Below, in pieces: positions 31,956 through 50,049 of a stretch of 54,062 nt of DNA. The position numbers and the translations under genes were made by a program. How positions within the stretch are numbered: position 1 is the stretch's first letter; each line of letters begins with the position of its first letter. Origin of the DNA: an uncultured Porticoccaceae bacterium (lineage in GTDB: Bacteria; Pseudomonadota; Gammaproteobacteria; Pseudomonadales; Porticoccaceae); contig CAYWXW010000003.1 in the NCBI GenBank assembly GCA_964462265.1, positions 2,868 to 56,929 on the forward strand. Direction: 5' to 3'. The notes under the pieces are model-generated. The model saw only the letters and a program-made list of their open reading frames with translations, ran no database searches and was not told where the DNA came from.

Positions 31956-33632
31956 TTAATATATATATACAGCATTACCACAATCAAATATTCTTAGATA
32001 ATCATTATTCAACATATTTTGATAACCAGATAAATTAGGATTAAAATTATCCAATATTTTTTCCTGTTTATGTTTTTGAAATTTAAGACGAGAATGTAAA
32101 ATTAATGTATTTTTCTTAAAATAAAAATAATTTGGTTGAGATATTTTTAGTAACTTAAAATTTGATTTAAGATAGCTTTCTCCAGTAAAATATCTTAAAT
32201 CAACATAAGAAATAATTGATGTTGATTTAAGATCATTTACTATAAATTTAATTAATTTAGAAAACCCACCAATAACACTAAATTGCTTAATAGTAAAAGA
32301 TCTTAATATTTCATAATCATAATTTTTATTATATCTCGATTTACCCATAGACATAATATATACTGGCTTATTTTCATAATATAAAGCATATATTTTATCT
32401 GATCTTATATAACCTTGTAGATGGTTCTCTTTAACTAATTTTTTATATAAATCATTATTGATTATTTTAACCTCACACTTACGAGCATATATTTTAATTT
32501 TATTTAAATTTAACCTATTAAAAAGAATTGATTTTACAATGTTATTTTTTAAAATCCATTCATTTTGAAATATATGTATAATATCTATGTTAAAATTTTT
32601 CTTAAAAAACTCACTTTTATCTTTATGATAATTTTTTGATTTTAACTGATCATTATGCCAATATATACCGTCGTATTCAATTCCTAATTTATAATCAGGT
32701 AAATAAACATCGATCTCTAAAGATTTTGAATTAAATGAAAATCTTTTATTATATATTACTTTAATACCATAGCTTTGAATAAATACACCTATTTCTTTTT
32801 CAGCTTTAGATTTACCATATTTATTACATTTTGAACATCCATGTCCGTGTTTATGATTATCTAAAGATTGTTTAAACCAACCATGATTTGGACATTTTAT
32901 CATAATTTTCGTAAAAACACCATCATCTAACTCTTGATATTTAGGATAATGATAAAAGTTCTCATGTGCTTTTTTACAAACCTCTATATTATCACTATAA
33001 GATAATAAACTATTTTTGGTTCTTTTATCATAAGCACATTTAGGGCAACCTTGTCCGCTTAAATGATTTTGTATATTTTGCCTAAAATTTCCATGTATAG
33101 GACATTTTATAACTATATAATCACTACAATTATCTATTTCTTGATTTTTTGGATAGATATAAAAATTATTATGAATTTCTTTAAATCTTTCAATATAATC
33201 ATAATAAGTTTTTTTATGCGTATTTATTAAATTCTCTTTAAAACAATCTTTACAACCAGAATTACCGCTAGCATGTAAACGAACTTTCACCTTAAATTTA
33301 CCATGCTTTGGGCATATAACACTAATTATACTATTATGATTCTTTATTTCTTGATTTTTTGGATAAATGTATTTATTACCATAAACATCTTTAAATTTTA
33401 TTAAATAATCTTCATATTTTTTTACTTTTCTTTTTTTATTACCACATTTAGGACAACCTTGACCACTTAAATGATTCCTTAGAGTTTGTTCAAATTCTCC
33501 ATGTTTAGGGCATATTATCTTTATTTTTGTATTATTATTTTCTATTTCTTGATTTTTTGGATAGATATAAAAATTATTATGAATATCTTTAGCTTTAATT
33601 ATATATTCTTTATATGTTTTCTTTTTAGGCAT
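31956..33632 (-). CDS. homing-endonuclease-like protein (zinc-ribbon repeats, Vsr/DUF559-type nuclease motif, Hef-like C-terminal domain)
   Basis: Four CP.HG.F...H.SGQGCPKC-type repeats paralogous to those in 28410-29516. Then EKEIGVFIQSYGIKV...LEIDVYLPDYKLGIEYDGIYWHN, and ARKCEVKII...ENHLQGY...GGFSKL...SYVDLRYFTGESY, as in T-even Hef-like proteins. Confidence 0.6.
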   Translation of the reverse strand: MPKKKTYKEYIIKAKDIHNNFYIYPKNQEIENNNTKIKIICPKHGEFEQTLRNHLSGQGCPKCGNKKRKVKKYEDYLIKFKDVYGNKYIYPKNQEIKNHNSIISVICPKHGKFKVKVRLHASGNSGCKDCFKENLINTHKKTYYDYIERFKEIHNNFYIYPKNQEIDNCSDYIVIKCPIHGNFRQNIQNHLSGQGCPKCAYDKRTKNSLLSYSDNIEVCKKAHENFYHYPKYQELDDGVFTKIMIKCPNHGWFKQSLDNHKHGHGCSKCNKYGKSKAEKEIGVFIQSYGIKVIYNKRFSFNSKSLEIDVYLPDYKLGIEYDGIYWHNDQLKSKNYHKDKSEFFKKNFNIDIIHIFQNEWILKNNIVKSILFNRLNLNKIKIYARKCEVKIINNDLYKKLVKENHLQGYIRSDKIYALYYENKPVYIMSMGKSRYNKNYDYEILRSFTIKQFSVIGGFSKLIKFIVNDLKSTSIISYVDLRYFTGESYLKSNFKLLKISQPNYFYFKKNTLILHSRLKFQKHKQEKILDNFNPNLSGYQNMLNNDYLRIFDCGNAVYIY

Positions 33633-38691: not shown

Positions 38692-38720
38692 TTGACATTT
38701 TGTTTTTGATTTATTATAAA
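38692..38720 (+). promoter_or_regulatory. sigma70-like promoter TTGACA-N17-TATAAA for the rightward operon
   Basis: TTGACA at 38692-38697, the 17-nt spacer TTTTGTTTTTGATTTAT, and TATAAA at 38715-38720, about 48 nt upstream of ATG 38769. Confidence 0.6.
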
Positions 38721-38768: not shown

Positions 38769-39179
38769 ATGGAAAAAATATCATTAGAGAAAAAAATAGA
38801 TACTTTTTATTTCAGATTATCATTAAAAGATAATGATTTACTTAGTGTTCATAAAGATATACCAGATATTTATTCTGAGTCAACTTTACTTTATAGTCAG
38901 GCTATGACTAAAATAGCTCAGTTAACAAAAAGAATAAATAGAGATAAATCGAAGTTATATCGTAAATACAGACAAAATACTCAGTTTGATTTAAAAAAAG
39001 GTGAGATTGAAGAATATTATTTAACAAATGATAAGAGTATAAGGGATAAACAATTTAAAATTGATGTACTTGAAATACATATCACCAGATTAGAAAAATT
39101 ATTTCAATTGCTAAACAATATGTCTTTTATAACTGGTAATTTTATAAAAATACAAGAAAAAAGAGGTGTTAAATTATGA
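38769..39179 (+). CDS. hypothetical coiled-coil protein, translationally coupled to gp46
   Basis: 136-aa ORF. An ATGA stop/start overlap joins it to the gp46-like gene. Confidence 0.55.
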   Translation: MEKISLEKKIDTFYFRLSLKDNDLLSVHKDIPDIYSESTLLYSQAMTKIAQLTKRINRDKSKLYRKYRQNTQFDLKKGEIEEYYLTNDKSIRDKQFKIDVLEIHITRLEKLFQLLNNMSFITGNFIKIQEKRGVKL

Positions 39180-42067: not shown

Positions 42068-44002
42068 ATGAATGATATTTTAATAAAAAAATTAGAAAAA
42101 GCTTTAGATGCATATGATAAAGGTCAAGCAATTATGAGCGATTATGATTATGATTGTCTTATAGCTGAGTTACGTTCATCTGACCCTAAACATAAATTTT
42201 TACAAAAAATAAGTAATCAGGGTGGTGATTTCAAACATAAAACAAAAATGTTGAGTCTTGATAAAATACACACACCAGATGAACTCATAAAATGGTTTAA
42301 TAAAGTTAAATATTTTTGTTCATTTAAATTGGATGGTATAGCCATATCGATACATTATATACTACGTGATGATTATTTTTATATTCATAAAGCAGTTACA
42401 AGAGGTGATGGTAGTATAGGAAAAGATGTTACCCATATTATTCATGGTATTGATCTTCCTAATAAGATACAAAAAACAAATGAAAATTATACATCATTTG
42501 AGGTTAGAGGGGAAGCAATTATGGATAGAGCGGTATTTGCTGAACTTAAAAAAAGTTCTGATTTAGATTATAATACTCCTCGTAATTTAGTAGCAGGATC
42601 ATTTAATACTCTAAAAGACCCAGATATATTAAGAAAAAGAGGTATTAAATTCATTGCATATAATTTAATTGCTGATGGAATATATAATAATATCTCTGAT
42701 GATGATAGACTCAATATTAAATTTTCAATCAATTGGAAATATTTAAGATCAATTGGTTTTGAAACTGTACCTAAAATAGTAACATCTAAATATGATGAGA
42801 TAATGAAATGGATAAAAGAGACAGAAGATAGACGTAATAAAATACCATATGATATTGATGGTATAGTCATACAAAGAAATAATATCTATAGATTTTTACA
42901 AGAGGGTTTCACTGATCATCATCCTAAAGGCGCAATAGCATATAAATTCAAACCAAATATCACTAAAGCAATAATCAATGCTATTACATGGCAACTTGGT
43001 CGTACTGGTATATTAACACCTGTTGCTGAGATTGAGCCTATTGAATTAAATGGTGTTTTAATTAAAAGGGCAACATTACATAATTTAACATTTATCGAAG
43101 ATAAAAATATTACTATCGGATCAGTTGTTGAGTTACAAAGATCAGGTGATGTAATACCTAAAATAAACAAAGTATTAGAATGGAATGATGATAGTTATTT
43201 AACTATACCTAAAAAATGTCCAAAATGCGGAGAACCAATTATTAAAAAACTCAGCATATCAAATCAATATAATCTTTATTGTGATAATCCAACATGTAAA
43301 GGTAAGTTGGAATTAAAAATACTTTATTGGTTAAATATGACAGGTTGTAAAGGTATTGGTGATAAATTAATAATTAAAATGGTACGTAGAAGATTTATAA
43401 GTAAAATTGCTGATCTCTATAGTCTATCACCAAAAAGATTAATGATGTTGGATAAGATTAAAATAAAATCTGCAAATAATATTTGGAATGCTATACAAGA
43501 TACAAAAGAAATAACAACAGCTCAATTCATGGCTGGTCTTGGTATTGAAGGTGTTGGTATGGGTATGGCTGAAAAAATATCTGAACATTTTGATAATGAT
43601 TTTAGTGAGATATTAAGATGTAGCTATCCTGATTTTGAAGAAATTGATGGTGTCGGATCAATATTAGCAAAAAATATTGATAATTATTTTACACTAAATT
43701 ATGAAGAGATTGCAGAGTTGCTCTCTATAGTAAAAATAAAAAATGTTAATGATAGACTTAACTCTCAGCAAAAAGATGGCATCACAGGTCTCTCCTTTTG
43801 TATTTCAGGTAAAGTATCAAAAGGTAAAGCATATTATTATAATTTAATAGATTCTTACGGTGGTATCATACATACAAGTGTGAGTAAAAAATTAGATGTG
43901 TTAATTAGTAATGAAACTAGTACTTCTAAAGTTAAAAAAGCAAATGAGTATAAAATTAAAATTATAAATGAAAAAGAGCTTAATGATTTAATTTATAAAT
44001 GA
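42068..44002 (+). CDS. ligA: NAD-dependent DNA ligase (LigA family)
   Basis: Adenylation KxDG (CSFKLDG), VRGEAIM, TPRNLVAGS, DIDGIVIQ and AIAYKF. Zinc finger CPKCG...CDNPTC, HhH repeats, and a BRCT-like GLSFCISG. Confidence 0.9.
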   Translation: MNDILIKKLEKALDAYDKGQAIMSDYDYDCLIAELRSSDPKHKFLQKISNQGGDFKHKTKMLSLDKIHTPDELIKWFNKVKYFCSFKLDGIAISIHYILRDDYFYIHKAVTRGDGSIGKDVTHIIHGIDLPNKIQKTNENYTSFEVRGEAIMDRAVFAELKKSSDLDYNTPRNLVAGSFNTLKDPDILRKRGIKFIAYNLIADGIYNNISDDDRLNIKFSINWKYLRSIGFETVPKIVTSKYDEIMKWIKETEDRRNKIPYDIDGIVIQRNNIYRFLQEGFTDHHPKGAIAYKFKPNITKAIINAITWQLGRTGILTPVAEIEPIELNGVLIKRATLHNLTFIEDKNITIGSVVELQRSGDVIPKINKVLEWNDDSYLTIPKKCPKCGEPIIKKLSISNQYNLYCDNPTCKGKLELKILYWLNMTGCKGIGDKLIIKMVRRRFISKIADLYSLSPKRLMMLDKIKIKSANNIWNAIQDTKEITTAQFMAGLGIEGVGMGMAEKISEHFDNDFSEILRCSYPDFEEIDGVGSILAKNIDNYFTLNYEEIAELLSIVKIKNVNDRLNSQQKDGITGLSFCISGKVSKGKAYYYNLIDSYGGIIHTSVSKKLDVLISNETSTSKVKKANEYKIKIINEKELNDLIYK

Positions 44003-44010
44003 GACTTATA

Positions 44011-44172
44011 ATGAAAAATAAAATATACTATTTTATACTCTGCATATCAGCTTTTTTAATAACTTTCTCATATTTTGTTATGAGGGAGCATAATAAAGAA
44101 AAATGCTACAAACGCTGTATTAAATCATCAAATAAAACGGAGTGGATTTGTGATAAAATATGCAATAGCTAA
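44011..44172 (+). CDS. small membrane protein with Cys-rich tail (53 aa, below the track cutoff)
   Basis: Hand translation gives MKNKIYYFILCISAFLITFSYFVMREHNKEKCYKRCIKSSNKTEWICDKICNS. The SD is weak. Confidence 0.35.
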   Translation: MKNKIYYFILCISAFLITFSYFVMREHNKEKCYKRCIKSSNKTEWICDKICNS

Positions 44173-44599
44173 TCTATTAATTTTATTTTTATTATTCCCA
44201 AATATTATACATGGTTTTAAAATTCATAATAAAGCTAAATTAATATATGATTATTTTCAAAAAACTGAATATAAGAATGTAGCAATGATAATAGCAAGTC
44301 AGGCTATTTTAGAGACAGGTCATTTTAAATCTAGTAAACATAATGAATTAAATAATTATTTTTCCATAAAAGATTGGAAAGATAATAGATGTAAAATGAA
44401 GCCTATCTATTGTATGAAAAGATATAAAAATATTAAAGAATCAATAATAGATATGCATAATTATATAAGTCGCAAGAAATATAGAACATCACCATTAACA
44501 TATTATAATGATCTAGTTAAAAATGGTTATGCGCAAGATCCTCTTTACGTACAAAAAATTAAATCAGTTGTTAAATCTTTTAAAAATAATTATAAATAA
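44150..44599 (+). CDS. secreted/membrane-anchored peptidoglycan hydrolase (glucosaminidase, FlgJ/GH73-like)
   Basis: GTG start with GGAG 7 nt upstream. N-terminal signal-like IANLLILFLLFPNIIHG. ASQAILETGHFKS...NNYFSIK resembles the AQAALESGWG...NNLFGIK motif. Confidence 0.55.
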   Translation: MIKYAIANLLILFLLFPNIIHGFKIHNKAKLIYDYFQKTEYKNVAMIIASQAILETGHFKSSKHNELNNYFSIKDWKDNRCKMKPIYCMKRYKNIKESIIDMHNYISRKKYRTSPLTYYNDLVKNGYAQDPLYVQKIKSVVKSFKNNYK

Positions 44600-44631
44600 T
44601 AGTACCTTAATAATTATTTAAAGAGGTCATT

Positions 44632-44811
44632 ATGAACAAATGCACAGGCGAAATGGAAGTCTTCAGCCGAGTTGTTGGTTATTACCGTCCAGTTAGTAGT
44701 TGGAATAAAGGTAAAAAACATGAATTTTTTATGAGAAAAACCTTTAAGATGCCAGAATTGGAAGATGTAGAAACTGATGATGATAGATCACTTCTATCTG
44801 TAGCAGATTAA
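44632..44811 (+). CDS. stand-alone NrdD C-terminal glycyl-radical-domain-like peptide (59 aa, below the track cutoff)
   Basis: Hand translation gives MNKCTGEMEVFSRVVGYYRPVSSWNKGKKHEFFMRKTFKMPELEDVETDDDRSLLSVAD. AAGAGG lies 5 nt upstream. SRVxGYxRPVxxWNxGKxxEF is the class III RNR glycyl radical region pattern. Confidence 0.6.
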   Translation: MNKCTGEMEVFSRVVGYYRPVSSWNKGKKHEFFMRKTFKMPELEDVETDDDRSLLSVAD

Positions 44812-48552: not shown

Positions 48553-50049
48553 ATGATGTATACTCTTTATAAAGGCATTTTTATTTTTATTGCTGTTTCT
48601 TATTCTTATTTTTTGAGATTCATAACAACAGATTTAGTTATGAACATATTTTATATACTTAAAGGTTTTTTTGACGGAGAACTTTTTTGCGCTATTAGTG
48701 GTAAAGAACAATTTTATAAAGTTAAACAAGCCAATTCAGAAAAAGAAAAAGATCAATGGATAACAAGAGTTTATGAATATTTAGAAGACCCACTGCATGG
48801 TAAAATTGATTGGTTTCCTAGATTTTTAACTGTTATTATTCTAAGACGTTATTATGGAGATTGTGTTGCCGAGTATGAAAAAATAATTACAGAAAGAGGA
48901 AATATACCCATTAAAGATTTAAATAAAAATGATAAAGTTTTATCCTATAATTTTAATTTAAAGAAATATGAATTTAAAGAAATACTAAATCACGTCAATA
49001 AAGGTAAAAAAAATATTGTACGAGTACATTATAAAACTGGTAATTATAGCGATTTTACACCTGATCATAAAATATATCATGGGAATATAGATTATAAAGT
49101 ATCTAAAATAAAAGACATTGACATAAATAACCATAATGAAAGGAAAGTGCCAGTTATAACTAAAATGCCATATACAATTCAAGATAATGATTATTATACT
49201 GAGGATATTTGTTTTTTATTGGGTTATTATATGGCTGAAGGTTATTATTATAAAAAACGATGTTATATAGGTGGTCACGATATACCTAAATATATAATAC
49301 CAATACTAGATAAATATGATATTAAATATTCTTTGAAAATAAGAGAAGGTGATAATTTACCAATTATAGAATTTTTAACCTCTGATTTTCGTAATAATAT
49401 ATTAGGTGAGATGGTTTTAAATAGTTTTAATATTAATCCACCAAAAATATTATATAATTTACCACCTAAAAAACTTCAAAAAATATTAGATGGATATTTT
49501 TTAGGTGATGGTCATATGAGAGAAAATAAAGAAAAATGTTATTCCACATCTTGTGATATTTTAAAAGATTTTATTGTTGAAATATCTTTTAAAATTGGAA
49601 ATCCTGTTGCACCATATCATCAGTTAAAACATGGTGGTGTTGGTAATAAACCGATTTGGAGAATATATGATCGCCCAAAAGCGTTTCATAAAAAAAATTA
49701 TGGTTATACTAATTTAAGTGAAACACATATTAAAAAAATTGAAAACTTAAATGATAAAGTTAATGTTTATGATATTGAGGTTAAAGATAATCATAACTTT
49801 ATTATGGCAAATAGTGGAGTAATAGTCCATAATTGTGACGATTTTGGAATATTAGCTAGATATATGTATGGTGACGGTAAACTTTATTCAATATTACCAT
49901 ATAATAAAAAATATTGGAATAGAATGCATGTTGTCTATGTACGTAATAATAAAATATATAGTTCTGATAAAATATATTTTATGAGTTTACAAGAGTATTT
50001 AGATAGATATTATAATAGTATTGATTATTTTAAATTAAAAGTTATTTAA
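48553..50049 (+). CDS. membrane-anchored transglutaminase-like (BTLCP-type) cysteine peptidase interrupted by an intein
   Basis: The joined exteins read ...DWFPRFLTVIILRRYYGD|CDDFGILARYMYGDG...MHVVYV...SSD, a GDC(D/E)D(F/Y) Cys-His-Asp layout. There is an N-terminal hydrophobic segment. Confidence 0.6.
   Translation: MMYTLYKGIFIFIAVSYSYFLRFITTDLVMNIFYILKGFFDGELFCAISGKEQFYKVKQANSEKEKDQWITRVYEYLEDPLHGKIDWFPRFLTVIILRRYYGDCVAEYEKIITERGNIPIKDLNKNDKVLSYNFNLKKYEFKEILNHVNKGKKNIVRVHYKTGNYSDFTPDHKIYHGNIDYKVSKIKDIDINNHNERKVPVITKMPYTIQDNDYYTEDICFLLGYYMAEGYYYKKRCYIGGHDIPKYIIPILDKYDIKYSLKIREGDNLPIIEFLTSDFRNNILGEMVLNSFNINPPKILYNLPPKKLQKILDGYFLGDGHMRENKEKCYSTSCDILKDFIVEISFKIGNPVAPYHQLKHGGVGNKPIWRIYDRPKAFHKKNYGYTNLSETHIKKIENLNDKVNVYDIEVKDNHNFIMANSGVIVHNCDDFGILARYMYGDGKLYSILPYNKKYWNRMHVVYVRNNKIYSSDKIYFMSLQEYLDRYYNSIDYFKLKVI
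48862..49833 (+). mobile_element. class 1 intein with LAGLIDADG homing endonuclease domain (324 aa)
   Basis: Starts CVAEYEKIITERGNIPIKDL. Block B is FTPDH. LAGLIDADG motifs LLGYYMAEGY and ILDGYFLGDGH. Ends VYDIEVKDNHNFIMANSGVIVHN, followed by the +1 Cys. Confidence 0.85.

Follow-up and report, generated by a model that had tools for sequence, protein, structure and literature searches.

Small free-standing spare-part proteins are established among the glycyl-radical enzymes for pyruvate formate-lyase, where they are represented by YfiD/GrcA of E. coli and Y06I of phage T4, and a 2026 review of these enzymes knows spare parts from the formate lyases only, their existence for other members being "yet to be determined". 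The original prediction for the locus described here, which was made from the sequence alone, had named the formate-lyase examples with their T4 homologue and knew of no described equivalent of the NrdD type. The examples are documented, and the literature that we searched held no description of a split NrdD or of a free-standing NrdD radical domain. The class III ribonucleotide reductase (RNR) NrdD is described in fused form from T. maritima (4COI/4U3E), phage T4 and P. copri, and these enzymes have in common with our ORF an SRVxGY loop and a WNxGKxxEF helix. The class I RNR of phage Aeh1 is encoded by genes in pieces, and its products work as separate pieces. Likewise, the split class II RNR NrdJa/NrdJb of P. 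aeruginosa works as separately encoded pieces. In both of these systems, however, a single genome supplies both pieces and the radical-bearing element is not set apart by the split, unlike in the arrangement that we report here.

The DNA analysed was a stretch of 54,062 nucleotides (hereafter the window) from a contig filed under an uncultured Porticoccaceae bacterium, and the ORF of interest encodes a product of 59 residues, MNKCTGEMEVFSRVVGYYRPVSSWNKGKKHEFFMRKTFKMPELEDVETDDDRSLLSVAD. The features of this ORF and of the sequence just upstream of it are the following.

44591..44598, + strand: TATAAATA, a putative signal that resembles a T4 late promoter and lies 41 nt before the ATG of the ORF.
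44621..44626, + strand: the Shine-Dalgarno sequence AAGAGG, with the ATG 5 nt downstream (read directly from the sequence).
44632..44811, + strand, stop codon included: a free-standing NrdD-type glycyl-radical mini-protein of 59 aa (profile homology and family membership).
44641..44643, + strand: the codon of Cys4, at -8 from Ser12; in alignments this residue corresponds to the final zinc ligand in the CPxC knuckle of NrdD.
44665..44745, + strand: the conserved core S12-F38, SRVVGYYRPVSSWNKGKKHEFFMRKTF (profile match and family alignment).
44677..44679, + strand: the codon (ggt) of Gly16, the predicted radical-bearing glycine (alignment).
44746..44808, + strand: an acidic tail of 21 residues, KMPELEDVETDDDRSLLSVAD, predicted to be disordered (pLDDT 54-60).

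An ORF of 59 codons is not significant by its length alone in DNA of 26% GC, and we therefore accepted this one as real because of its homology. The Pfam family NRDD (PF13597) matched with an E-value of 1.6e-9 and 37.5 bits, above the gathering score of 26.2 that serves as its cut-off, and residues 3-38 of the ORF aligned with positions 526-562 of the 562 in the profile, which are the last 37 positions only. Three NCBIfam NrdD models matched at this same C-terminal end of NrdD (E 1.3e-10, 1.4e-8 and up to 2e-7), and their equivalog cut-offs of 326-585 bits were not reached. In a Pfam scan at E <= 1 NRDD was the sole match and Gly_radical (PF01228) was absent, whereas GrcA and YfiD belong to the Gly_radical sequence family (IPR011140, PF01228). 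The likeness to these proteins and to Y06I, which is also phage-encoded, is that of a small free-standing protein with a glycyl-radical loop, and, as with GrcA/YfiD, the product of the ORF would need the activase of the parent enzyme. Compared with the fused NrdD enzymes, in which the last zinc ligand of the C-terminal domain aligns with Cys4, the ORF is a separate protein with its own start and acidic tail; it lacks profile positions 1-525, including the ten-stranded barrel and the thiyl-radical cysteine loop, and has one of the four zinc ligands. Judged by its sequence, then, the product is not an NrdD enzyme.

Gly16 stands in the motif SRVVG16YY and was invariant in the 46 mini-proteins of this type that we aligned (46/46). 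A profile built from 46 family members aligned the core to residues 612-645 of T. maritima NrdD (4COI), with Gly16 falling on the glycine of RIVGY, which we take to be the radical site of that enzyme. An AlphaFold2 model based on the family alignment predicted a β-hairpin formed by strands 9-12 and 17-20, with SRVVG and Gly16 in the connecting loop, followed by a helix at residues 26-33; the block-mean pLDDT was 85-89 across residues 11-30 and the tail was of low confidence. A Foldseek search with this model gave no significant match (4U3E ranked fourth, with an E-value of about 4) and a phmmer search of the PDB with the ORF gave no match, while the family profile found no more than weak matches in the PDB, to T. 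maritima NrdD (E 0.02-0.03). A single-sequence search of a set of 5.8 billion proteins returned nothing besides the ORF itself, an exact look-up of contigs encoding it found none, and tblastn against the GenBank phages gave two matches, both to full-length NrdD in unrelated elements.

The contig that carries the ORF has a GC content of 26%, against an average of 51% for the rest of the 374-contig MAG. Its T4-type genes encode a DNA polymerase, topoisomerase II subunits, a gp32-like SSB, gp41-like and Dda-like helicases, a portal, a prohead protease, a Rad50-like ATPase, an NAD-dependent ligase, ThyX, a dCMP deaminase and a thymidylate kinase; no terminal repeat was found on it. We concluded that the contig represents part of a T4-like phage genome, misbinned into a bacterial MAG and a contamination of that bin; the MAG says nothing about the host of the phage. 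Searches of IMG/VR with the DUF1353-like neighbour of the ORF, ThyX and the DNA polymerase found no close relatives of this phage, and the best identity of its ligase among the GenBank phages was only about 30%.

Within the contig, the ORF is preceded by a GH73-type glucosaminidase (PF01832, E 6e-17) and lies about 740 nt upstream of ThyX, the first of the genes for dNTP supply in this phage, after which come the dCMP deaminase and the thymidylate kinase. In profile searches across the whole assembly, that is the contig together with the MAG, the ORF was the sole NRDD match and both an NrdD body and NrdG were absent; no class I or class II RNR was found on the phage contig. At 0.35, the GC content of the ORF exceeded the mean of the phage's genes (0.26), and its GC3 was 0.25 (against 0.149 +/- 0.038), which ranks it within the highest 4% of in-frame windows of 180 nt. 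With these results the observation behind the original prediction was borne out: the proposed HMM search supported a free-standing NrdD-type module that includes the radical glycine, as both the Pfam and the NCBIfam models match, the good Shine-Dalgarno sequence is present, the lack of an adjacent NrdD body extends to the whole assembly, and the higher GC content holds modestly. As for the two neighbours that had been named, the GH73 assignment stands, whereas the downstream gene has a weak DUF1353 match that falls below the cut-off (E 0.017).

The motif TATAAATA also occurs at 38715 and 47347 on the + strand, upstream of + strand genes starting at 38769 and 47380, so that together with the ORF three genes of this strand have the motif 33-54 nt before their start. 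The motifs may be T4-type late promoters, although such motifs arise by chance in AT-rich DNA. A scan for sigma-70 promoters and terminators did no better than with shuffled sequences, and no tRNA genes were found in the window. Several other ORFs of the window were recorded as well. In the region 43999-44599 (+), next to the mini-protein gene on its upstream side, the start of the GH73 glucosaminidase is overlapped by an ORF of 57 aa that is rich in Cys and has a hydrophobic stretch at its N-terminus. A 557-aa HNH/homing-endonuclease-like protein (31956-33632, -), which matches phrog_559 with an E-value of 1.6e-127, is encoded amid the replication genes. At 48553-50049 (+), an ORF of 498 aa combines an extein of roughly 174 aa with an intein that carries a LAGLIDADG endonuclease (PF14890, E 7e-14) and sits in front of one of the extein's Cys residues; the joined exteins matched no Pfam family. 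An apparent NrdD match at 48862-49827 was rejected, as it reflected only the similarity of one intein to another; the intein of this ORF resembles one in the viral NrdD L007.

The mini-protein proved to belong to a large family. A first scan of IMG/VR gave six tails of fused NrdD and six short stand-alone ORFs, four of them distinct, on unrelated viral contigs, and a search with a profile of five phage mini-proteins and a length filter gave at least 1282 short protein clusters. All of the 120 mini-proteins listed from these clusters start with Met and have a leader of 9-32 residues before SRVxGY, a conserved core and variable tails, the core of the family being (P/C)xE(V/I)(Y/F/W)SRV(V/C)GY(Y/F)RPxxxWNKGKxxEFxxRK. 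Family members were defined by a start of their own 9-32 residues before SRVxGY, a length of about 42-107 aa and a core that continues through RKxF. The ORF belongs here, with a core 57-80% identical to those of its nearest members and a leader of 11 residues, the commonest length among the called mini-proteins (42 of 120). As in the ORF, a Met is found at -11 from the Ser of SRVxGY in 48 of 67 orphan mini-proteins from IMG/VR, and a Cys at -8, corresponding to Cys4, in 58 of the same 67 and in 43 of the 120 called mini-proteins. The tail beyond the core has a median of 10-16 aa in mini-proteins, compared with 8 aa in fused NrdD.

Because the start is at the position that is standard for the family and has a good Shine-Dalgarno sequence, we do not regard the ORF as a decayed tail, and the suggestion that it might be the remnant of a deleted nrdD is not supported, for a similar reason: its start, its Cys at -8 and its tail match those of a large family of intact mini-proteins. 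The 35-residue core of the ORF has a mean identity of 0.64 to the tails of fused NrdD and of 0.62 to mini-proteins, and scoring of the core, which we tried as a test of origin, did not separate the two. Since the core is equally similar to both, the sequence does not establish that the ORF descends from a two-piece system.

Such two-piece systems exist in cells. In several bacterial lineages an nrdD body without the Gly loop is directly followed by a mini-protein gene and then by nrdG, an operon whose mini-protein has the same architecture and core as the ORF. In one example, P0116, the part that aligns with the ORF is 73% identical to it, and the body in the operon of P0116 ends in ...CPVHGYVPGEHHTCPHMNNDG...stop. 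In contrast to these operons, the copy in the window is a phage orphan with neither body nor activase on the contig. The break between the two chains falls inside the second zinc knuckle, as the bodies keep C-x2-H...C-P and then stop and the mini-proteins begin with M-x-K-C-G. The zinc ligands on the two sides are complementary: bodies that end in C-P-x, and so lack the last ligand, go with mini-proteins that have Cys(-8), and bodies that keep CPKC go with mini-proteins that do not. The latter style is seen in the Elusimicrobiaceae (L195, L197), where the bodies keep CPKC, with all four zinc ligands and a helical tail, and the mini-proteins have a helical leader and no Cys at -8. From this pattern we infer that the Cys at -8 would complete the zinc site across two chains. 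Mini-proteins of the helical-leader style were also seen in the complete 45.7-kb phage record L052 and in the similar P0074.

In some genomes two or three mini-proteins follow one body in tandem, and one spirochaete mini-protein stands alone, far from any nrdD. A Lentisphaeria chromosome (G041:C1:852160-854383; L204, L206, L211) has an nrdD body followed by three tandem mini-proteins, and the same genome contains four orphan mini-proteins elsewhere. In L215 the ATP-cone forms a separate ORF of 89 aa (33-302, -) upstream of a cone-less two-piece body (733-2448, +). In L035 (3930-6487) nrdD was called as two ORFs of 279 and 382 aa, followed by two tandem mini-proteins and nrdG; the two ORFs may represent a frameshift error of long-read sequencing or a further split.

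On balance, these comparisons incline us to think that the ORF is a working phage gene for a detachable radical subunit, the partner of which would be an NrdD body from another source, most likely the host, with the NrdG of the host arming the peptide. The proposal that the ORF is one half of a split gene would then have been right in kind, with the other half probably belonging to the host. The gene would be transcribed with the + strand block for replication and nucleotide metabolism and translated from its own Shine-Dalgarno sequence. An NrdG-type activase, probably that of the host, would take a hydrogen from Gly16 at the tip of the β-hairpin, and the peptide would dock onto an NrdD catalytic body that has no Gly loop of its own, where Cys4 would complete the three-ligand zinc site of the docked body. 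The radical would be handed to the active-site cysteine of the body, and anaerobic dNTP synthesis could continue during infection, at a time when synthesis by the host of a small subunit that oxygen can cleave may fail.

The nearest relatives of the ORF, P0070 and P0110 (79% and 76% identical, respectively, over the aligned part), are found in replication and recombination modules of phages without nrdD, and the gene order of P0110 (Rad50-like, ligase, SMC-like, mini-protein, amidase) resembles that of the window. A second scan of IMG/VR gave 496 related stretches, and the best 80 of these comprised 13 fused NrdDs and 67 mini-proteins, none of which (0/67) had an NrdD body within 3 kb. Similarly, no NrdD body was found in any of 33 viral records with a mini-protein, all of at least 32 kb and searched over their whole length; these records match solely positions 504 or later of the NrdD profile, for 13 of them completeness is 90% or higher, and terminal repeats were present in three. 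A further complete phage of 91.9 kb has its mini-protein gene between terminase and portal and no NrdD body. The orphan state is the rule for phage copies of the mini-protein.

We consider it unlikely that the ORF is the small subunit of a two-piece NrdD of the phage's own, with the body, and perhaps nrdG, encoded in phage DNA missing from the recovered contig. Such a body would be favoured by the fragmentary state of the contig, which has no terminal repeat and carries T4-type replication genes, a portal and a prohead protease, and by the nature of T4-like phages, whose genomes much exceed 57 kb in size and often encode NrdD and NrdG. Against it, the bodies are lacking in all 33 viral records, the 13 near-complete ones included, as well as in the complete 91.9-kb phage; cellular two-piece mini-proteins directly follow their body, which the ORF does not; and the recovered 57 kb contains a nucleotide-metabolism cluster without any RNR gene.

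To weigh a regular part against a spare part, we determined what type of NrdD occurs alongside orphan mini-proteins in cells. Among genomes of Lentisphaeria/Victivallales with orphan mini-proteins, the resident NrdD was two-piece in the four that could be evaluated (4/4); one orphan mini-protein among these four genomes has phage-like neighbours. A larger sample covered 121 genomes of the same phylum, which is possibly not the phylum of the phage host. In this sample 14 of the 16 orphan-bearing genomes had a two-piece NrdD, and orphan mini-proteins occurred in two of the 54 genomes with fused NrdD only. The association of orphans with two-piece NrdD gave a Fisher p of 1.7e-7, uncorrected for the relatedness of the genomes, a value that overstates independence because related genomes share both traits, although the direction is still clear. 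Ten genomes of the sample (for example G047, G055, G058 and G076) have both a fused and a two-piece NrdD. From these comparisons, where the NrdD body has no loop the mini-protein looks like the regular radical subunit and not a backup.

This association also weighs on the idea of a spare part in the manner of GrcA/YfiD, according to which a fused NrdD of the host, once oxygen had cut its chain at the radical glycine, would have its Gly loop replaced by the peptide. Spare parts are established for pyruvate formate-lyase, with a phage case in Y06I, the same cleavage afflicts all glycyl-radical enzymes, and the orphan mini-proteins of the two fused-only genomes and the solitary spirochaete mini-protein could be accommodated in this way. 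GrcA, however, backs up an enzyme that has a loop of its own, whereas the mini-proteins are the only loop of the two-piece NrdDs, and orphan mini-proteins are strongly enriched where NrdD has no loop and the mini-protein is a regular part. Moreover, a cleaved fused NrdD would retain its zinc ribbon and a stub of the loop, which the peptide would have to displace. We thus find a spare-part role distinctly unlikely; of the spare-part idea in the original prediction the free-standing module stands, and the data, namely the sole Gly loop of the cellular two-piece NrdDs and the co-occurrence of orphans with them, point to a regular subunit instead.

There is still less to recommend a decoy, in which the peptide would soak up NrdG or block the docking site and so stop anaerobic dNTP synthesis by the host. 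Both the motif recognised by the activase and the residues for docking are kept, and a competitive inhibitor would need them no less than a working subunit; yet the radical glycine and the whole core are invariant across the phage copies, an invariance that inhibition would not call for. A phage also depends on dNTPs, the gene has genes for dNTP supply around it, and no phage RNR that could be favoured instead was found on the contig, so that we hold this explanation to be highly improbable. Least probable of all is that the ORF has no function and is carried along as a passenger or relic, whether newly acquired or in decay, under no selection in the phage, for although the GC3 in the top 4% of windows suggests recent acquisition, the ORF has an intact frame, a family-typical start, a Shine-Dalgarno sequence and every invariant residue, and its boundaries are common to hundreds of independent phage copies.

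The reading of the ORF as a detachable radical subunit can be carried one step further, to an exchangeable radical cartridge: a subunit of 6-7 kDa, made by the phage and armed by the host, that would be plugged into a loop-less host NrdD and sustain the supply of dNTPs after host shut-off or oxygen damage. We put this forward tentatively, as a possibility that may well need revision. Cyanophages carry psbA for the fast-turnover D1 protein, and the role of that gene has been shown experimentally. By analogy, the phage described here would carry just the labile, consumable part of a host machine that it needs; psbA differs in that it concerns an unrelated protein and pathway, and the role of the ORF is inferred.

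If the cartridge reading is true, the ORF would be the first viral radical-cofactor gene of its kind, and it would extend exchangeable glycyl-radical modules beyond pyruvate formate-lyase for the first time. The peptide, with its 59 aa, makes a simple reagent as well. Should it work in trans, class III RNR would have an unnoticed two-subunit form, in which the part of this essential anaerobic enzyme that is most fragile towards oxygen would be cheaply replaceable, and viruses of anaerobes would exploit this replaceable subunit to secure their DNA precursors.
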